From Escherichia phage SKA64, in the sequence record OM362897.1: 64,000 bases of DNA, one strand, 5' to 3'. Both the position numbers and the translations under genes were made by a program. How positions within the stretch are numbered: position 1 is the stretch's first letter; every line of letters starts with the position of its first letter. Below the pieces are notes generated by a model. That model was not told the origin of the DNA. It ran no database searches and saw only the letters and a program-made list of their open reading frames with translations. Below are positions 26,982-43,268 of this stretch, piece by piece.

Positions 26982-26990
26982 GGAGAACTG

Positions 26991-27983
26991 ATGCGCTATC
27001 TGGTAACAGGTGGTCTTGGTTTTATTGGGAGTGCCGTGGTGCGCTCTCTTTGTCAAGATCCCAATAACGAAGTTTTTGTCGTTGATAAGATGGGCTATGC
27101 AGCAGACATTGAGAATGTAGGCGATATCACTCACGTTAAACTAAGCATAACAGATTTGGCAAACGAAACCCAGGTCAAAAGTTTAGTAGTAGAGTGCAAT
27201 CCTGACTTCATCATTCACTTAGCGGCAGAAAGTCATGTGGATAATTCTATCAAGAATCCACGAGTTTTCATCGACTCCAATATTATTGGTACATACAATT
27301 TATTGGAAGCTGCAAGGCTCCTCCCAAAAAATAAACTGAAGATGTTCGTACACGTCTCCACAGACGAAGTGTACGGCGATATGGCAGACTCTGGCGTTCC
27401 CTTTACTGAAGAGACAGCTTATGCCCCTTCAAGCCCGTACAGCGCGTCTAAGGCAGCATCTGACCATCTTGTGAAAGCTTGGCACCGTACCTACGATTTG
27501 CCTGTTGTGATAACCAACTGCTCCAATAACTTTGGGCCTTATCAACATCCAGAAAAGCTGATCCCAAAAATCATCACAAGTATCTTGACGAATAAAGAGA
27601 TTCCGGTGTATGGTAAAGGCGATCAGGTGCGAGACTGGCTTTTTGTTGAGGATCATGCGCGAGCTATTCTTCAAGTGGCAACAGGTGGAGAACCAGGTCA
27701 AACGTATAATGTTGGAACACGTAATCCCAAAACCAATATGGAGATCATCTATATGGTTTGTGACTACATGGATGCTGTACATCCAGAGGCAGGAACCTAC
27801 CCTTCTTCCAACTTGATAACTTTTGTTGAAGATCGTAAAGGACATGACTTGCGTTATGAAATCAATCCTTCTAAAATAGAGTCTGAACTGGGTTGGAGTG
27901 CAAACTCTACATTTGAACAAGATCTCTACTCAACGATTGAATGGTACTTAAACAACCCTCAATGGTGGAGTGAGAAAATTTAA
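26991..27983 (+). CDS. rfbB: dTDP-glucose 4,6-dehydratase
   Basis: N-terminal [15 protein letters not shown] Rossmann motif; length and overall pattern as in RmlB. Confidence 0.85.
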
Positions 27984-27991
27984 GGAGGGTT

Positions 27992-28870
27992 ATGAAAGGT
28001 ATTATTTTGGCGGGAGGAAGTGGAACCCGCCTTCATCCAGTAACACGCAGTGTGAGCAAGCAATTACTCCCTGTGTATGACAAACCCATGATCTACTACC
28101 CTTTATCGGTATTGATGTTGGCTGACATTAAGGATATTTTAATAATCACCACACCAGGCGATCAGGAAGACTTTGAGTATCTTCTCGGAGATGGATCTAT
28201 GTTTGGGATAAAACTCACTTACGCAATCCAATCTGAGCCACGAGGTCTTGCTGACGCTTTCATCATCGGTAAAGATTTTATCGGAGAAGACTCTGTTGCT
28301 CTTATTTTAGGTGACAACCTATTCTTCGGACAAAGCTTTGGTAAACTACTGATTAACGCTAGTGAGATGGTAGATGTTTGGGGTGGAGCTTGTATCTTCG
28401 GGTATTTGGTGAAAGATCCTGAACGATTCGGTGTGGTTGAATTTGGGAGTAATCGTCAAGCTATTTCTATTGAAGAGAAACCTGAAAATCCTAAATCAGA
28501 TTATGCTGTCACAGGTTTGTATTTCTATGATAACTCTGTTATTCAACGTGCATTAGAAGTAACCCCTTCCGCGCGTGGAGAACTGGAGATCACTGATATC
28601 AATCGCAGCTACCTAGAAGACAGCAAGTTACAAGTGGAAGTTCTCGGACGAGGATTTACTTGGCTTGACACAGGAACACACGCCAGTCTGATGGAAGCTG
28701 GTCAATTCGTGCAGACTATTGAGAACCGTCAAGGATTGAAGATTGCGTGCCTGGAAGAAATTGCTTTCAAAAAAGGGTGGATTTCTTTAGAGACTTTGGT
28801 GTATCATGGAAACTCACTGAAGAAAACAGAGTACGGGCAATACCTACTCAAATTAGCGGAGAGAAAATGA
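27992..28870 (+). CDS. rfbA: glucose-1-phosphate thymidylyltransferase
   Basis: [18 protein letters not shown]...[16 protein letters not shown], a classic RmlA N-terminus. Confidence 0.85.
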
Positions 28871-29433
28871 AAGTAGAAAAAACAAAAATTGAAGGTGCGG
28901 TAATTATCGAACCAGACGTTTATAAAGATGATCGTGGTTTCTTTCTAGAAACATATAATGAACAAAAATACGAAGATATTATTGGTAGACAAACTTTCGT
29001 TCAAGATAACATGTCTAAATCAAACTTCGGTGTTTTGCGAGGAATGCACTTTCAAACAAATAACCCGCAAGGTAAGCTTGTTCGTTGTGTAAGTGGGGAA
29101 GTATTGGATTTCGCTGTAGATTTACGTAAAGATAGTCCAACTTACGGTGCTTGGGACGGTGTTGTTCTTCGTGCACGACACCATACGCAGTTTTGGCTTC
29201 CACCTGGTTTGGCACATGGTTTTATAGTTTTGAGTATGGATGCTATCTTTGAATACAAATGCACAACTCCATACGACCCTTCTAGTGAACAAAGTTTACG
29301 TTGGGATGATCCTGATATAGGGATCGATTGGGGCTTCGATATGATTTTTGATGAAGGTTTTAAACCTATTCTATCAACAAAAGATGCAATGGCTAAATCT
29401 TTTCAACAGTTACGTAGCGAGGGTGTATGCTAA
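28867..29433 (+). CDS. rfbC: dTDP-4-dehydrorhamnose 3,5-epimerase
   Basis: Cupin-type RmlC pattern. ATG at 28867 overlaps the rfbA stop (ATGA). The track ORF extends further upstream in the same frame. Confidence 0.8.
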
Positions 29434-30269
29434 CATATCTGGTATTGGGCGGTAATGGACAACTGGGACAAGCTTTACGTAAAGTGGCTCCTTCAAATGT
29501 ATCTTTAATTTATCCTAAAGAACGTGTAGATATTACAAATTTTGAAGCTGTGCGAAACGCTATTATTGAAGATTATGTAGATGGTGTTATTAATTGCGCC
29601 GCTTATACGGCTGTAGATAAAGCAGAACATGATTTTGCTACTGCTTTGGCTGTTAATGCGTATGGACCTGCAAATATTGCGGCAGTGTGCAGCAAACTTA
29701 AAATTGATTTTGTGCATATTTCTACAGACTATATTTTTAATTATTCTCATCCTATTTTTGAAGATACTACACCTAACCCAATAAACAATTATGGGTATAC
29801 GAAAGAACTTGGTGAAAAAATGGTGCGAGGAGTTAACCCAAATGCATATATTATTCGAACAGCCTCGGTATATAGCGAATTTGGAAATAACTTTCTAAAA
29901 ACCATGTTGTCTCGCTATAATGATGGACAACGTGATTTTATTATTGTTGCTGATCAGTTCTCTTGTCCAACATATGCTCCAGATTTAGCAGAAGCTATTT
30001 TTGAAGTATTAAAAACAGGTTGGTCAAGGTCTGTTAAGACTTACCATTTTGCAGGAAGCCATCTTATTTCTTGGGCGGAGTTTGCGGAAAAGATCTTGAC
30101 ACAGATGCCAGAACCTGTTAAGATATCGGCGGTATCAGCTTCAACCTATAATGCTCCAGCAGCACGTCCGGTGAAGTCACAACTAGTAACCAGTCACTAT
30201 CTTACAAAATCAGATTTAAATAAAGGTATTGAACAGTCTTTAGCAGTATTACTTAATAAGGAGAGGTAA
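29427..30269 (+). CDS. rfbD: dTDP-4-dehydrorhamnose reductase
   Basis: LVLGGNGQLGQAL N-terminus, about 280 aa. Completes the four-enzyme pathway. Confidence 0.75.
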   Translation: MLTYLVLGGNGQLGQALRKVAPSNVSLIYPKERVDITNFEAVRNAIIEDYVDGVINCAAYTAVDKAEHDFATALAVNAYGPANIAAVCSKLKIDFVHISTDYIFNYSHPIFEDTTPNPINNYGYTKELGEKMVRGVNPNAYIIRTASVYSEFGNNFLKTMLSRYNDGQRDFIIVADQFSCPTYAPDLAEAIFEVLKTGWSRSVKTYHFAGSHLISWAEFAEKILTQMPEPVKISAVSASTYNAPAARPVKSQLVTSHYLTKSDLNKGIEQSLAVLLNKER

Positions 30270-30529
30270 TGGAATTTGTAATTTTTGGTAAACCTAACTG
30301 TCAATTTTGTGAAATGTCAAAACAACTATTAACCATGCGCAATAAACAGTTTGAATATTTAAGTCTTGATCAAGACTATGATTTAGAATCAATGACTAAA
30401 ACAGTTGTTGATCTTACCGGAGTTCCTCCACGCACATTTCCACAAATTCTGTCCGAAGTGAACGGGGAGGTAACATACGTAGGCGGTTTTACCGAACTGC
30501 GTGATCTCATGGCTCAAATTGCGGAGTAA
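30269..30529 (+). CDS. glutaredoxin/NrdC-like redoxin
   Basis: CQFC active site, and VGGFTELRDL resembling the T4 NrdC C-terminus. Confidence 0.65.
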   Translation: MEFVIFGKPNCQFCEMSKQLLTMRNKQFEYLSLDQDYDLESMTKTVVDLTGVPPRTFPQILSEVNGEVTYVGGFTELRDLMAQIAE

Positions 30530-32020: not shown

Positions 32021-32524
32021 TTGATGGGTGTAGCAACAATAGCTATCGGAAGAAGCGGTATAGATGAGTGCTATCAAACGGGACTCGTAAAACCTAACGA
32101 ATTTCGTCAAATTTGTGTAAACCATATTGAAAAAGAGATTGCTCTTACTTTAGAGAATATGACCCTCCGAGATAAGCTGGAAATGTTTAAATGTTGGTGT
32201 CTAGGAGAAGATTGGCTTTTAAACCATTTTCAAGAACTTTCTGATAGTAAAGAAAGCTTGTTTGATTGTATAATAGGAATAGCTGGCTCCGATCCTAGCC
32301 TTCTGCACATAACAGAAGAAGAGGCGAAGTTACTGTTCTTAAGTAATTTGTTTAATAAGAAAGCACTGCTTGTTCGTGATTGCAGTGATCTTCTTAATAA
32401 CCCGCTCGCAACGTCTGATCAAATTTTTGTTGACAAAGAGACACTACGTGCGATAGAATACATCTGCAAATATGTGAATGGCGGGAAAGCGGTTCTTAAA
32501 ACATTAACAGAGGAGGAAGAATAG
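32021..32524 (+). CDS. hypothetical protein
   Basis: 167-aa ORF immediately upstream of the HslV-like gene. Confidence 0.35.
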   Translation: MMGVATIAIGRSGIDECYQTGLVKPNEFRQICVNHIEKEIALTLENMTLRDKLEMFKCWCLGEDWLLNHFQELSDSKESLFDCIIGIAGSDPSLLHITEEEAKLLFLSNLFNKKALLVRDCSDLLNNPLATSDQIFVDKETLRAIEYICKYVNGGKAVLKTLTEEEE

Positions 32525-33216
32525 TGACGACAATTATTGCAACCAAAAATAAGATTTTGAGTGACGGTAAGGTAACTTTTGGTGGACGTGTAGATTCTAT
32601 TAATTTCAAAAAGGTCCGAAAAATTGGAGATTACCTTGTAGGTGGTGCTGGTCGTCTGACCTCCGTGCTTTCTTTCTTTCAATGGTTTGAACAAAATCTA
32701 CAGTGCGAAGCAGCACGTGATGCTGTCCCTGGTTTGATGATTCACTCTGATCCAGACAAAGAAGATGAAGAGTTTATTGCACTTGTTGTTCATCCAGACG
32801 GACGTATTTTCCTGCACGAGGGTAACAACCCAACACGTGCATATCCGATTGATGAAGAATATTATGCAGTAGGGAGTGGGTCAGACTTTGCTTTAGCTGC
32901 TCTTGATGCAGGGGCAACACCAGAACAGGCTATGGAAGTAGCTAAAAAGCGAGATGCTTTTTCTGGTGGTGAAACATTTATTGAAGAACAAGACGAGATT
33001 ATTGAATTAACAGACGATGATTTAGAAAACTTCTCCAAAGAAGAATTGATCAATCTTTTGAAATTCGGTAATCCCTACGGTGAAGAAGAACCTCGTAACG
33101 TGGCAGGTAACGAGGCGGATACTGAAGAAAAATCTGTTGCAGAAAACAACTTGACTTCTAAATCTGAAAATATTAATCTCGTAAATGTGGCGGATTTCGA
33201 AGGAACCGCTATTTAA
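32524..33216 (+). CDS. HslV-like proteasome-type peptidase (Ntn hydrolase) with acidic C-terminal extension
   Basis: MTTIIATKN... with Thr at position 2, FKKVRK, GGAG, AVGSGSDFALAA align with E. coli HslV as recalled. GTG start. Confidence 0.6.
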   Translation: MTTIIATKNKILSDGKVTFGGRVDSINFKKVRKIGDYLVGGAGRLTSVLSFFQWFEQNLQCEAARDAVPGLMIHSDPDKEDEEFIALVVHPDGRIFLHEGNNPTRAYPIDEEYYAVGSGSDFALAALDAGATPEQAMEVAKKRDAFSGGETFIEEQDEIIELTDDDLENFSKEELINLLKFGNPYGEEEPRNVAGNEADTEEKSVAENNLTSKSENINLVNVADFEGTAI

Positions 33217-33261
33217 CAAACTGCCCCTTCGGGGGCATTTCTTAAACATAGGAGATTAATA

Positions 33262-33696
33262 ATGTTACAAGTTCCTGCTAAGTTTGTTGAAGGCGCTATC
33301 CACTCTTACCGTCAAACATGTAAGAGGGCAAGAAACTGTTTAGATGGTCTGGTGGCAAAAACCTATACTGTTGAAAAGAAGAAACGTTGGTTTGGCAAAG
33401 ATGTTTACGAAGTTAATATTTTTGGTGAACATAAACTAAACCACGATACTCCTGAAAACATGTTAGAAATATTTCTAAGAGATGACAAAATATCTCCTAT
33501 GGATTACCAACTTTTAAAATTTTATGATTCTTCTTTGGCTATTGATAAGTTTGTTGAAGATATTCTGTCTAGAAAAACAGATAAAAACACTTATCCTCTA
33601 GAAGCTGATCAAATAGGATTATTAAACGAGATTTCATCCTTTAAAGAGTTGGATAATATTACAAAAGAGGAGATTTTAGATGGCATTAGATTATGA
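33262..33696 (+). CDS. hypothetical protein
   Basis: 144-aa ORF. Confidence 0.35.
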   Translation: MLQVPAKFVEGAIHSYRQTCKRARNCLDGLVAKTYTVEKKKRWFGKDVYEVNIFGEHKLNHDTPENMLEIFLRDDKISPMDYQLLKFYDSSLAIDKFVEDILSRKTDKNTYPLEADQIGLLNEISSFKELDNITKEEILDGIRL

Positions 33697-34189
33697 TCGC
33701 CCAACGAGCGATTATTATCCAACACCGCAAAAAGCAATCAATAGTTTGTTTAGTGTTATAGATTTCAAAAATCTAAAGGAAGAAGGTTGGGTTTTTGCAG
33801 AACCTTGCAGAGGTGAAGCTGAAGCGATTTATCGCCATTTTCCTGAAGGTTCAGAATATTGCGAACTTGAAGAAGGTAAAGATTATTTTAGTCATGAATG
33901 GGAAAATCGTCCCGACATTATAATCACAAATCCTCCATTTAAGTTAGCAATGGAGTTCTTGGAAAAGAGCTTAAAAGAGGCGGATGTTTGTATTTATCTT
34001 CTTCGGTTGGGCTTCTTGGAGTCAAAGAAACGACGAGAGTTCCATCAAAAGAATCCACCAACAAACCTTATAGTCCTTTCAGAACGGCCTTCGTTTGTTG
34101 CAGGTGGAACAGATAAGACAGCATACGCTTGGTATGTATACGACCCAAAGAATCGTTTGGGCCTCTCTCAACCATTTTATTTTGTTTAA
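33680..34189 (+). CDS. small N6-adenine DNA methyltransferase-like protein
   Basis: IITNPPF (motif IV) and N-terminal YYPTP. Confidence 0.5.
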   Translation: MALDYDRPTSDYYPTPQKAINSLFSVIDFKNLKEEGWVFAEPCRGEAEAIYRHFPEGSEYCELEEGKDYFSHEWENRPDIIITNPPFKLAMEFLEKSLKEADVCIYLLRLGFLESKKRREFHQKNPPTNLIVLSERPSFVAGGTDKTAYAWYVYDPKNRLGLSQPFYFV

Positions 34190-34877
34190 GGAGTGTGAAC
34201 TATGGGTAAACTAATTATGACAGTGGCTATTGATTTTGATGAAGTAGATGAAAGCCTCAACCTTTCACTTTCTACTGACGTAGATGGCGAAATGGATAAT
34301 ATTGAAGCAGCTACTGCTCTTTTCTTCAAAAAAGCCATTGAAGTTTATGCCGAACATGCTGCAAATCAGGCAGTAGATTACGGTGGTATCGTGCGAGCTT
34401 TAGTTCACTCTACCGAGGGCAATGACTGGGAAGATTAATGGCTTACAATTATTACTGCATTTATGCACATGAAAAGAAAAAAGGTGACACTGGGACTAAC
34501 GTTTATGCGGAGTCCGAATCTCATGCAAAAGAGATTGGTGCTATCCTTTTATCACGCTGGACTGGAAATAATTACAGTGCAGAAGATATGTTTGCAGAAG
34601 TGGATTCTAGAATCCAAGAAGACAACATAACAACTACGTGATATACTTATACTCCCTTTTCGGAGGGAGTATTTTAAGGAGGGATTATGCAGAGCGGAGA
34701 AGAACTTTTAGAGAAACAATTCTCAACGCGTCAACAAGCTTTAAGTTATATGGTTTTTCTAAGCAATCTTGATGTGAATGAGATACTTTTACGGCGCGAA
34801 GGTAATTTCTGGAGCGTTAAATATCATGCAACAAGGTCTGTAATCTACCTGGAAGAGGCGGAATTCTCTTTGGTAGA

Positions 34878-35468
34878 ATGATCCGAGGAGTAGTTATGCG
34901 TTCAACTTTCACTGGCAAAATAAATGCTGGTTTGATTTTTACAGCAGTAAGCATTCTTAGCAAAAAGTTTAAAGTTGTTAACTTACCTGTGTGTGTCGAT
35001 TTCGATCATGTTTTTGATCCTTCGAACCCCACTCGTTGCATAGTAAGGAGTAATGTTGAAAACCCAACAGAAAATCTTTTTTATGTAACAAAACCATCTC
35101 AAAGCATACTTAACCAGGTTGAGGCGAAATTGATACCTAACGGTAAATATTACTCCTTTTTACCTTGTAAGTCGGTTGAAGTAGAGAATAGCAATACTTT
35201 CGCTAATAACTTGTCTGTATTCGTTTTCTTTGTTTCACAGGAAGACGAAACAGATGAAATGGTAGCAACAGTGAGATCACTTTATGACTCTTTAGGGGTT
35301 GTTTATAGTCAACAAGTGTGCGAAAATAATAAAGCCTGTGTAGATTTCATTATCAACGGTATTTGTGTTTGTAGAGTAGAATCTTTTTGGCTGCACGATA
35401 CATATGTGACTGTAGCAGAGGTTATATCTGAACCAAGATTTAGTCATGCGGTTTCGTTAATAATTTGA
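34878..35468 (+). CDS. hypothetical protein
   Basis: 196-aa ORF. Confidence 0.35.
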   Translation: MIRGVVMRSTFTGKINAGLIFTAVSILSKKFKVVNLPVCVDFDHVFDPSNPTRCIVRSNVENPTENLFYVTKPSQSILNQVEAKLIPNGKYYSFLPCKSVEVENSNTFANNLSVFVFFVSQEDETDEMVATVRSLYDSLGVVYSQQVCENNKACVDFIINGICVCRVESFWLHDTYVTVAEVISEPRFSHAVSLII

Positions 35469-35478
35469 GGAGGAAGGA

Positions 35479-35808
35479 ATGGAAATTACTACAGAACAAG
35501 CCCTTATCGATGAGGGTCGTAAAATCTTAGAAAAGTATTTAGGGGAGATTCATAAAACCCCTGGCTATTTGGGTTGGAGAATTGTTGAAGCTGTAGATTT
35601 CCTTCCTCGTAACAGTAAAAACGTCGAAATGCGATCTCTTTTCTTATTAGTAAAGGTGGATGGGGATACGCCTTTTAAAGATGCCGCAGAACATATTGAA
35701 AAAGTTGAAGAGAAAGCTTATGCAGAATTTGCCGATCTTGTTTTAGAACAAGAGATTGAAGGAAAGGTGAATATTTTTATTTTCTTAGATTTTGAGGAGG
35801 ATAAGTGA
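35479..35808 (+). CDS. hypothetical protein
   Basis: 109-aa ORF with RBS ggaggaagg. Confidence 0.35.
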   Translation: MEITTEQALIDEGRKILEKYLGEIHKTPGYLGWRIVEAVDFLPRNSKNVEMRSLFLLVKVDGDTPFKDAAEHIEKVEEKAYAEFADLVLEQEIEGKVNIFIFLDFEEDK

Positions 35809-36548
35809 TCATACACAGAGAAATTACTGTTAAAAGCGATCAAGATCTTTTTATAATTGGAGATCTACACGGTTGTTATAATTTGTATGAAAAAGGAAAG
35901 GCAAAGTTAGGTATCCGAGATACAGATGTGGTTGTATCTCTAGGAGATCTTACTGACCGTGGAAAGCAAAACTTTCGTTGTGTTTTAGAATTTACTCGTA
36001 AACACAATCGCTACGCTATTCGTGGCAATCATGAAGACATGATGATTAAAGGTATGCTGGAAGGAGATCGTAGCTACTACGAGTGTTGGTATCAAAATGG
36101 AGGATATACGGTCTTTGAAGAATGTGGTGAAGAAGGAGCTACAGCCTTAGCAATGATGACAGAAGATTTACCTGTTGTTCTCATTGTTAACTACAGAGGC
36201 ATGAAACTTGCGTTTATTCATGGTGGGTATCCATCTTCTTTGGAATATCTCCCTGTAACAGATATTCCAGAATACATTTCGAAGATGACAAAAACACAGG
36301 AAAACCGTTTTGCTGAAGCACTTATGTGGGACAGAGATATGGTAGACTGTGCTAAAGAGGGAATGAAACTTCCTGTTGTGATGGGTGTGGATTATGTGTT
36401 TCATGGACACTCTTATGTAAAAACACCTATTATCAATGCGAATCGTGTTTATATGGATACTGGATCTGTGTTCAATAATAACTTAACATTTGCTTATTTC
36501 GATATGGACGGTGGTCTTCAATTTTATTCAACTCTTGAGGAGGATTAA
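35805..36548 (+). CDS. Ser/Thr protein phosphatase (lambda-PPase-like metallophosphoesterase)
   Basis: IIGDLHGC, GDLTDRG, GNHEDM motifs. Confidence 0.75.
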   Translation: MIIHREITVKSDQDLFIIGDLHGCYNLYEKGKAKLGIRDTDVVVSLGDLTDRGKQNFRCVLEFTRKHNRYAIRGNHEDMMIKGMLEGDRSYYECWYQNGGYTVFEECGEEGATALAMMTEDLPVVLIVNYRGMKLAFIHGGYPSSLEYLPVTDIPEYISKMTKTQENRFAEALMWDRDMVDCAKEGMKLPVVMGVDYVFHGHSYVKTPIINANRVYMDTGSVFNNNLTFAYFDMDGGLQFYSTLEED

Positions 36549-39178: not shown

Positions 39179-39188
39179 TAAATAATAA

Positions 39189-39208
39189 CCCGCTTCGGCG
39201 GGTTTTTT
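39189..39208 (+). terminator. rho-independent terminator
   Basis: CCCGC-TTCG-GCGGG followed by TTTTTT. Confidence 0.6.
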
Positions 39209-39209
39209 A

Positions 39210-39238
39210 TTGACAGGAATCTGGAAGCCTGATAAACT
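39210..39238 (+). promoter_or_regulatory. sigma70-like promoter
   Basis: TTGACA, 17-nt spacer, TAAACT. Confidence 0.45.
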
Positions 39239-40210: not shown

Positions 40211-40607
40211 TATGTGTGGATATCTTTCAGAAAGTTATTTCAAAGTGACGCATGAGGATTTAGAAAAAGCACGATTGAAACTGACAGCTATTATTGAATA
40301 CTCTAATACTGTTGAACACAGATTAAAGACTACTAAAGTATCTGTTCCTTGTTGGTTAGGTTTACGGCATAAAATAATGTCTCAACATGACCATGTTGTT
40401 CGAGAGATGCATGGTTGGTGTTGGTTTCACGATGTGGCTCTGCATTTTGGTTATATTACAGAAGAAGAGCATAGATTCTGTGAACTAACATATCGTATTC
40501 CAACCCTTCACGATTTAGATTTGTGGAAGAAAGCAAACGAGATTTTTCTTACAGAAAGTGATTGGCGTAAAGTTATGGCTTGTCTTGAATGGAGGGGTAA
40601 TGAGTAA
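40194..40607 (+). CDS. hypothetical protein
   Basis: 137-aa ORF. Confidence 0.35.
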   Translation: MKEVINMCGYLSESYFKVTHEDLEKARLKLTAIIEYSNTVEHRLKTTKVSVPCWLGLRHKIMSQHDHVVREMHGWCWFHDVALHFGYITEEEHRFCELTYRIPTLHDLDLWKKANEIFLTESDWRKVMACLEWRGNE

Positions 40608-41979: not shown

Positions 41980-42483
41980 ATGGGAGGAAATATGTTTCAA
42001 GTAGAAATTCATGTGCACAACAGTTGTTCAAATTGCGAGACTTGTGGTTACAATAGTTCAACCATGATCACTATTAGCGGAGACTTAGGAGATGCCAAGT
42101 TTGGCGAAGTCGCAAGCTGCTTCAGCGGAGAGGATGCAGATTGGCATGATATTGCACACTGGTTGGTGAGCAAACTAAAAGAAAAAGAGAAACCATTTCC
42201 TACTCTGCTTGATCGTTCTCTTGTGGAAGATGCAGGTAAAGCATATGCAGACTATGCGTATGCAGACGGGAAATATTTGGAAGATGATAAGGCTAACCAT
42301 TTGCTTTATGTTTACTATGAAGCTGAATCTGCCTACGATAATTATTACAGCATGTCCAACATTCTACGTTTGTTTGCGGAGTTTGATATTTACTTTGAAG
42401 TGAGTTATTCTCAAGACGAAGTGTACGATTTGGATGACGAAGATTATGATGATTATGAGGAGGAAGAATGCCAAGACGATTAA
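41980..42483 (+). CDS. hypothetical acidic protein with CxxC pair
   Basis: 167-aa ORF, CSNCETCG near the N-terminus, very acidic C-terminus. Confidence 0.35.
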   Translation: MGGNMFQVEIHVHNSCSNCETCGYNSSTMITISGDLGDAKFGEVASCFSGEDADWHDIAHWLVSKLKEKEKPFPTLLDRSLVEDAGKAYADYAYADGKYLEDDKANHLLYVYYEAESAYDNYYSMSNILRLFAEFDIYFEVSYSQDEVYDLDDEDYDDYEEEECQDD

Positions 42484-43268
42484 TAGTGATCAGCGGCGCG
42501 GGTCTAAGCGCCGATAGCGGTGTACGTACTTTCCGCACTGACACAGAAAGTGGCAAAGCTTTGTGGGATGAATACGACCTTTCTGAAGTGTGCGACATTT
42601 TCAACTTCCGTGCTGGATACCAACAAGAACAGTGTGTTCCTGGGGCTGTTGGCGGATTAGATGCAGAGGGATACAACCTCTACCGTAAAACTCATGACTT
42701 CTACAATAAACGTCGCGTAGAGATGGATAGTGTAACTCCTAACGCTGCGCATTACCAGATCGCGGAATGGTTCCAAGAGTACGGCTGTGATCGTGTTATC
42801 AACATCACGACAAACGTAGATGATCTTCTGGAACAAGCAGGTGTTGTTCATGAAGATGTTCTACATGTTCACGGCTTCCTGCCTGAAGTGATCGTAGACA
42901 ATAGAATCATCAAAGATGTTGGCTATGCTGCTATCGATGTGGATGATTACAAGTATGTGAAGCCCAATGTAGTGTTCTTTGGGGAGACTGCCCCATTGTA
43001 TAACGATATGTACCACATCTTAGACGGCTTGACGGCTCAAGATATGGTGATTGTAGTGGGTTGCTCTAATCAAGTTATCAATTTTAACTGGGAGCTTTTT
43101 CCTGCTCTTAACATCGGAACAAAAATGGTTGTAGTTAACCCTGGAGTTAATTACGAAGAAACACTTCTCTATGAAGATCGTGGAGTTTTTGTTTACCGAG
43201 AAAAAGCTGCAACAGCCTTCAGCAATGAAGGTTTCATTAAAATGGTCGAAGACCACTTAAACAAATAA
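42468..43268 (+). CDS. Sir2-like (sirtuin family) NAD-dependent protein
   Basis: ISGAGLSADSGVRTFR near the N-terminus resembles the sirtuin NAD-binding signature. Confidence 0.55.
   Translation: MPRRLIVISGAGLSADSGVRTFRTDTESGKALWDEYDLSEVCDIFNFRAGYQQEQCVPGAVGGLDAEGYNLYRKTHDFYNKRRVEMDSVTPNAAHYQIAEWFQEYGCDRVINITTNVDDLLEQAGVVHEDVLHVHGFLPEVIVDNRIIKDVGYAAIDVDDYKYVKPNVVFFGETAPLYNDMYHILDGLTAQDMVIVVGCSNQVINFNWELFPALNIGTKMVVVNPGVNYEETLLYEDRGVFVYREKAATAFSNEGFIKMVEDHLNK

Follow-up and report, generated by a model that had tools for sequence, protein, structure and literature searches.

The 64,000-nucleotide stretch of Escherichia phage SKA64 that we analysed (sequence record OM362897.1; the window from here on) carries a short open reading frame (ORF) that raises a simple question: can a chain of only 169 amino acids (aa) act as a DNA methyltransferase of its own, and if so, which sequence does it modify and what does the phage gain from it? 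An earlier note, made from the letters alone, had proposed a compact orphan N6-adenine methyltransferase-like gene with an N-terminal YYPTP and IITNPPF as catalytic motif IV, which lacks an adjacent restriction endonuclease and would allow the phage to methylate its own DNA in order to evade host restriction. The ORF is real, running on the plus strand from an ATG at 33680 to a stop codon ending at 34189, and both motifs are in place, as DYYPTP (residues 11-16) and DIIITNPPF (residues 79-87). We put the probability at about three in four that it encodes a stand-alone, S-adenosylmethionine (SAM)-dependent DNA N6-adenine methyltransferase with GATC as its predicted target, by analogy with an ortholog from a related phage. 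This reading is supported by a match to PHROG 799, 'DNA methyltransferase' (E=2.8e-59), by a gamma-type methyltransferase fold, by remote homology to the Dam family of phage HP1 and by the experimental data on that ortholog.

The Bas51 ortholog and GATC

The ortholog is bas51_0176 (177 aa) of Bas51, Escherichia phage WalterGehring (MZ501111), to which the window protein is 48% identical over its full length (residues 4-169; E=3e-47), and it lies in the same block of PhoH, protease and methyltransferase genes. All Bas51 escapers of the retrons Asa1 and Squ1 were mutated in the phage 'N6 adenine methyltransferase', and the engineered substitutions D69G, D79G and T83P each abolished the triggering of retron defence (PMC12548924). 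Nanopore calling of N6-methyladenine (6mA, or m6A) on wild-type Bas51 DNA produced a GATC logo. In the source data of the same study, the methylated adenines at GATC fell from 1405 in the wild type to 35 in the T83P mutant, whereas those at GTAC numbered 509 and 511 and those at other sites 576 and 349, respectively (PMC12548924). The three residues sit where that study places them, and in the window protein their counterparts are D68, D79 and T83, all of which are nearly invariant in the family. By analogy, we regard the Bas51 data as the decisive evidence for reading the window gene as that of a methyltransferase. Both a methyltransferase-family match (PHROG 799) and, in the DNA of a close relative, a 6mA motif were thus found, the two things with which the earlier note had let its proposal stand or fall.

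The Bas51 enzyme is, like the window protein, an orphan without a recognition domain and carries the same motifs; the window protein is 8 residues shorter and has NPPF where the Bas51 enzyme has NPPY. Besides Bas51, Vequintavirus orthologs of the window gene are present in rV5, FV3, Bas49, Bas52, Bas56 and Bas59. The window gene itself is under strong purifying selection, with dN=0.12, a saturated dS of about 2 and dN/dS=0.06 (nonsynonymous over synonymous substitution rate) against its ortholog in phage phi92.

Standard laboratory E. coli normally carries a Dam of its own. Because the T83P mutant of Bas51 lost GATC methylation despite growth on such a host, host Dam does not appear to cope with the phage DNA; the study (PMC12548924) does not mention Dam. 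Extended from the Bas51 ortholog to the window, the enzyme would place its methyl group on the adenine of GATC in replicating phage DNA, where methylation by host Dam falls short. ClaI evidence for Dam methylation in Pectobacterium phage CB7 was also considered and set aside, as it cannot be assigned to the phage enzyme when the host of CB7 is itself expected to carry Dam.

A methyltransferase core and its relatives

In the AlphaFold2 model, built on an alignment of 46 sequences (predicted local distance difference test, pLDDT, 90.5; predicted template modelling score, pTM, 0.86), the whole chain forms one Rossmann methyltransferase domain, a class I fold with the motif order X-I-II-III-IV-...-VIII and an (N/D)PP(Y/F) motif IV. 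The chain stops about 30 residues past RPSF (motif VIII) and has no C-terminal target-recognition domain. As modelled, the 169-aa protein is a gamma-type amino-methyltransferase core lacking a recognition domain. Fold comparison gave scores of 13.2 for PH1948 (METTL5-like, a putative RNA methyltransferase), 13.1 for MmeI (DNA N6-adenine), 12.9 for both METTL5 (RNA m6A) and M.TaqI (DNA N6-adenine), 12.0 for M.BseCI (DNA N6-adenine) and 10-12 for CamA, HsdM subunits and Erm/KsgA (DNA and RNA), and the top Foldseek ranks were taken by type I M subunits, CamA and M.TaqI. Going by the model, fold alone cannot tell a DNA from an RNA substrate.

Residue conservation was judged on an alignment of 46 homologs, with a wider check on 147 diverse family members. 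Invariant across the 46 are T15, E41-P42-C43, Y69, N84-P85-P86, F93, K96, E100, R118, R136-P137, F139, W151 and D155. The YPTP, EPCxG, NPP(F/Y) and RPSF motifs (Table 1) are invariant or nearly so in both sets. DYYPTP aligns with the 'Y-TP' of HsdM chain 2okc and the 'W-TP' of HP1 Dam, and by analogy would be the N-terminal motif X of gamma-type amino-methyltransferases, which closes over the methionine part of SAM. EPCRGEA, with a strand at residues 39-41 of the model, aligns to the 'DPACG' of type I M subunits. SAM would be bound by the YPTP motif, the EPCRG loop and the acidic residues E62 and D68, while the target adenine would flip into the NPPF pocket (residues 84-87), by analogy with M.TaqI-type enzymes. 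The RPSF loop probably lies opposite the flipped base; in the HP1-Dam family it has a conserved counterpart, R-x-P/A-F, with which it aligns.

How the DNA sequence would be read is less obvious. Since there is no separate recognition domain, reading would fall to short loops, namely RPSF, the variable stretch at residues 140-148 and a C-terminal hairpin. The variable loop is a candidate minimal DNA-recognition element; residues 141-150 have a mean pLDDT of 73, the lowest of any internal stretch of the model, and four homologs (P0038, P0083, P0105 and P0115) carry CxxC...CxC zinc-ribbon insertions just after RPSF. Another family member, kp12 of Vibrio phage Kappa/K139 (L002:2971-3585; 36% identity), has a zinc ribbon at its C-terminus; experimental data on kp12 were not found in the literature. 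Whether inserted or C-terminal, the zinc ribbon may be an added DNA-binding element.

Table 1. Coordinates of the putative methyltransferase gene and of its sequence elements within the window
Feature	Position	Strand	Basis or conservation
Coding sequence, probable orphan mini N6-adenine DNA methyltransferase, 169 aa	33680..34189	+	ORF; PHROG 799; phAPEC8 annotation; Bas51 identity; dN/dS
Shine-Dalgarno GAGGAG, 7 nt before the ATG, within the 3' end of the preceding ORF	33667..33672	+	Sequence read directly
Putative motif X, DYYPTP (Y-x-T-P), residues 11-16	33710..33727	+	Y13, T15, P16 invariant or nearly so
Motif I, EPCRGEA, residues 41-47, end of strand beta-1 and SAM glycine loop	33800..33820	+	E41, P42, C43 invariant; G45 nearly
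Motifs II/III, ELEEGKDY, residues 62-69, acidic cofactor-binding residues (predicted)	33863..33886	+	E62, G66, D68 nearly invariant; Y69 invariant
Catalytic motif IV, DIIITNPPF, residues 79-87, strand beta-4 and NPPF pocket	33914..33940	+	N84, P85, P86 invariant; D79, I81, T83 nearly
Motif VIII-like loop, RPSF, residues 136-139	34085..34096	+	R136, P137, F139 invariant
Variable loop, VAGGTDKTA, residues 140-148	34097..34123	+	Zinc-ribbon insertion site in a subfamily; low model confidence

A related family that has been described is that of HP1 Dam, PF05869, of which orf13 of phage HP1 (173 aa) is a member (E=7e-75). The 169-aa protein does not match PF05869 even at E up to 10 (gathering score 28.1 bits), and 55 of the 147 relatives match it, all below threshold. 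Aligned with hhalign, the profile of the window family and that of 15 PF05869 proteins match at 95.4% probability (E=2e-8, 125 columns), and the match covers W/Y-x-T-P, NPP(Y/F)S and R-x-P/S-F. Across the 147 members, the sub-threshold Pfam matches are mostly to DNA N6-adenine families (EcoRI_methylase 75, Dam 55, Eco57I 40, N6_Mtase 39). Judging by these profiles, the window family is remotely homologous to PF05869, as a sister family and not a member of it. Phages HP1 and phiARM81mr have been listed among those with Dam-like genes, where Dam-like activity is defined as GATC methylation (PMC7556043). We tried Aeromonas phiARM81mr p11 as a member of the window family and rejected it, as it belongs to PF05869 and the pairwise BLAST was not significant.

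Like the window protein, the PF05869 proteins (HP1 Dam, phiARM81mr p11) are about 170-190 aa long, orphan, borne by phages or prophages and without a recognition domain, and the two families share the element order (W/Y)-x-T-P, NPP(Y/F)S, R-x-(P/S)-F. They differ in motif I, which is EPCRGxG in the window family and DLDxCA in PF05869. The gamma-class enzymes (M.TaqI, MmeI, M.BseCI, CamA, HsdM) have the same motif order X, I, II/III, IV (NPPF), VIII; however, they measure 380-1500 aa and have a large C-terminal recognition domain or a separate S subunit, neither of which the window protein has, and the sequence similarity is not significant. Classical Dam enzymes of the alpha class, such as those of E. 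coli and T4, have another motif order, a DPPY motif and an inserted recognition domain, at 259-278 aa. The expected product would be the same, m6A at GATC, as extrapolated from the Bas51 ortholog, and T4 Dam, too, is an orphan enzyme of a phage, but homology is undetectable beyond the Rossmann fold and MethyltransfD12 appeared in no Pfam scan. Taken as a whole, the profiles place the window protein in neither PF05869 nor classical Dam, but in a large sister family of 'mini' methyltransferases that lack a recognition domain.

This family is widespread. Homologs were found by tblastn in 543 phage records, with identities of 99-100% in phAPEC8-like phages, 85% in phi92-like phages, 47-52% in rV5-like, Klebsiella, Cronobacter and Pectobacterium phages and 36% in Vibrio K139/Kappa, followed by remoter matches in phages of Gram-positive bacteria. 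Searching exhaustively with a profile, we obtained 13,085 clusters at 50% identity, 6,639 of them at E<=1e-10, and nearly all members are stand-alone proteins of 160-220 aa. Pfam domains were found in none of 120 close homologs. As a clue to the substrate we looked at long fusion members. The top 150 include two, one of them PAPS-reductase-like at its N-terminus, and both were uninformative. Huge as it is, the family is yet absent from Pfam and NCBIfam and has no solved structure. Literature on phAPEC8, rV5, Phapecoctavirus, Stephanstirmvirinae and K139 held annotation-level statements only, and that on phage Dam enzymes lacking a recognition domain nothing useful. As a side observation, 18 unannotated 'Campylobacter phage' records within MG065635-MG065690 carry the gene at 98.7% identity to the E. 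coli Vequintavirus version, and most of them are about 135-143 kb, close to Vequintavirus genome size; these records may be mislabelled or contaminant coliphages.

Target, substrate and biological role

Several results weigh against the reading of the gene as a GATC-specific DNA methyltransferase gene that benefits the phage. No Pfam or NCBIfam model scores above threshold for the 169-aa protein, a sequence search of solved structures in the PDB gave no significant match, and a profile search against PDB sequences gave sub-threshold motif matches only. A benefit against restriction would be hypothetical, and phages of this group proved very vulnerable to the restriction systems with which they were challenged (PMC8594841). 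Furthermore, an identity of 48% to the Bas51 enzyme leaves room for a different target sequence, and T83P also lowers the calls outside GATC and GTAC, so that specificity may be relaxed. These last two points are the natural basis for an alternative in which the Phapecoctavirus enzyme does methylate N6 of adenine in DNA, with another short motif as its target or with a much looser specificity. Methyltransferase specificity can shift with few substitutions, a recognition domain is missing from the enzyme, and the stretch that follows RPSF varies within the family. Over-expression of the Bas51 enzyme is moreover toxic even in E. coli, which normally carries Dam, a hint at off-target activity; together with the drop at 'other' sites, this suggests some off-target methylation. 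Nevertheless, we consider a departure from GATC unlikely. The Bas51 enzyme is encoded by a syntenic ortholog and the gene is under strong purifying selection; even the distantly related PF05869 enzymes have been described as Dam-like; and GATC is abundant and not avoided, with 286 occurrences observed in the window against 301 expected (ratio 0.95). As for a looser specificity, a fully non-specific enzyme would mask EcoRI, EcoRV and type III sites, and because the phage group is so restriction-sensitive, broad or non-specific protective methylation is excluded. A non-specific adenine methyltransferase of the M.EcoGII kind was rejected on the same grounds and because the Bas51 logo is distinctly GATC.

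A different kind of substrate has to be weighed as well, as a single NPPF domain of about 170-200 aa that lacks a recognition domain is a typical build for RNA and protein amino-methyltransferases, and weak Pfam MTS matches occur in 41 of the 147 members. The product would then be an RNA (rRNA or tRNA) N6-adenine or a protein methyltransferase of the METTL5, PH1948 or HemK kind that modifies the host translation apparatus. We hold this to be highly improbable, since the loss-of-function mutant of the ortholog specifically loses DNA m6A at GATC, and both the profile homology to the HP1-Dam family of DNA methyltransferases and the bias of the sub-threshold Pfam matches towards DNA N6-adenine families argue for DNA. 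A significant sequence match to METTL5/PH1948-type enzymes together with an RNA substrate was not found. The genomic surroundings speak for DNA, too. Directly next to family members in 80 bacterial loci stand genes typical of prophage replication or of the nin type (RusA, SSB, helicases, integrases, DUF927), joined in a few loci by further DNA methyltransferases (N6_N4_Mtase in 5/80, C5 in 3/80). Those same loci bear on whether the gene belongs, as the methyltransferase component, to a restriction-modification system or another kind of defence system, with its partner nearby or elsewhere in the genome. Although M subunits of type I, IIL and ISP systems are among its closest structural relatives, this idea verges on the negligible: of the 63 Pfam families matched by 150 neighbours from the 80 bacterial loci, the 25 commonest include no restriction endonuclease family, family members almost always stand alone, and no nuclease-like gene is found among the scanned neighbours of the window gene (32021-35808).

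The absence of an adjacent restriction endonuclease, as the earlier note had it, therefore holds up, and since no flanking gene resembles a nuclease, so does the orphan status of the methyltransferase gene. Apart from an HslV-like peptidase and a 'histidyl tRNA synthetase'-like protein, the scanned neighbours belong to PHROG families of unknown function and are mostly small, and no S-subunit-like neighbour is present among the flanking ORFs scanned. The overlapping 144-aa ORF upstream was considered as a specificity partner and ruled out, as it is absent at that position in Vequintavirus: this extra ORF between the protease and methyltransferase genes is a feature of Phapecoctavirus and phi92.

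So what would be the role of a stand-alone GATC methyltransferase in these phages? Of the self-methylation proposed in the earlier note, methylation of the phage's own DNA is supported through the Bas51 ortholog, while evasion of restriction has not been demonstrated. Vequintavirinae and their phi92/phAPEC8-type relatives were found to be 'exceptionally susceptible' to the six restriction-modification systems tested with the BASEL collection, namely EcoKI, EcoCFT_I, EcoRI, EcoRV, EcoCFT_II and EcoP1_I (PMC8594841). Because none of these six cuts GATC, this result speaks neither for nor against protection from GATC-specific enzymes. Candidate roles are protection from GATC-cutting restriction enzymes or from MutH, or control of phage DNA transactions such as replication and packaging. 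A tentative idea, which we think rather doubtful as a whole, is that the family reads GATC without a recognition domain, perhaps through the loop after RPSF or by dimerisation, and that it really serves as a substitute for host Dam on phage DNA that replicates fast (replication, packaging, avoidance of MutH) and not as a means of evading restriction. In the ortholog, two side effects have been demonstrated, which by analogy may extend to the window enzyme: it triggers retron abortive-infection systems, and it is toxic when over-expressed in E. coli (PMC12548924).

For annotation, the window gene can now be described more precisely, as that of a probable GATC-specific mini Dam-like methyltransferase. 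Phages that carry it would be expected to be vulnerable to retrons able to detect GATC methylation on the retrons' own multicopy single-stranded DNA (msDNA), which is relevant to the choice of Phapecoctavirus or Vequintavirus phages for therapy. For the window itself there is little news, as the protein had already been deposited and the 48%-identical ortholog was characterised in 2025 (PMC12548924).

The palindromes of the window show where avoidance does occur. GTAC, GGCC, CCGG and CTAG are strongly depleted, at 0.34-0.53 of expectation, with GTAC the most depleted 4-bp palindrome (60 observed, 176 expected). Among 6-mers, CTGCAG (0 observed, 11 expected), CAGCTG (0, 7.6), CCATGG (0, 6.6), CGATCG (0, 6.5) and many others are absent altogether. 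A second methyltransferase-like gene lies at 40558/40600-41283 (+), the counterpart of phAPEC8 gp194, which matches PHROG 757 (E=2e-84) and no Pfam family and shows the C5-cytosine-like motifs FGFPPC and ENP. In Bas51, about 510 '6mA' calls at GTAC remain in the T83P mutant (PMC12548924). Modification of GTAC may be the work of this second enzyme, with m6A or, misread by the basecaller, 5-methylcytosine as the product.

Genomic and transcriptional context

The window belongs to Phapecoctavirus and shares 99.7% identity with phage phAPEC8; for its region 32500-35500, identity is 99.6-99.8% to phAPEC8 and to some 60 further genomes of the genus. The gene is already annotated: its counterpart in the RefSeq record of phAPEC8 is gp177, 'DNA methyltransferase', an identical protein has been deposited under that name in dozens of phage genomes, and phi92 gp056, at 85% identity, is a further ortholog next to bas51_0176. 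As such, the finding of a methyltransferase is ordinary and was known before. Phages phAPEC8, phi92, FV3, Bas49 and Bas51 all have the PhoH, protease and methyltransferase genes in this order. In stop-to-stop frames of at least 80 aa, (D/N/S)PP(Y/F/W/H) motifs occur only twice in the 64-kb window, one of them in the methyltransferase ORF.

The gene is packed in an operon. The upstream 144-aa ORF (33262-33696) shares 17 nt with the start of the methyltransferase gene, an overlap typical of operon packing, and the next ORF begins 13 nt past its stop codon; in the phi92 record, an AGGAG ribosome-binding site is annotated at the same place before the methyltransferase gene. Upstream of the plus-strand block of small genes lies a strong sigma-70-like match, TTGACA-18-TAGAAT, at 32430-32459. 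The plus-strand block that holds the methyltransferase gene is bracketed by two hairpins, a stem-loop at positions 33222-33237 and one that clearly resembles a terminator at 39187-39204. As far as such signals go, transcription would plausibly be early or middle and due to host RNA polymerase, and the position of the gene in a block of small genes downstream of the promoter match suggests that the enzyme would be expressed before or during replication. Both bracketing hairpins are GC-rich, of the GNRA/UUCG type and followed by T runs, and directly after the second one there is a promoter-like TTGACA-17-TAAACT at 39210-39238.

The upstream flank holds genes for dTDP-rhamnose synthesis, a glutaredoxin, a lysozyme, PhoH, the HslV-like peptidase (32524-33216, +) and the 144-aa protein of unknown function. 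Downstream follow three small proteins of unknown function, the 196-aa 'histidyl tRNA synthetase'-like protein (PHROG 4806; 34878-35468, +) and a NinI-type calcineurin-like phosphatase (35805-36548, +). By transfer from phAPEC8 gp166-169, the sugar genes form a four-gene nucleotide-sugar pathway of the dTDP-rhamnose type at about 26990-30270 (+), and a putative dTDP glycosylation machinery has been mentioned for phi92-like phages (PMC8594841). Further downstream, a gene at 42468-43268 (+) encodes a Sir2-like NAD-dependent deacetylase (PHROG 2162, E=1e-101).

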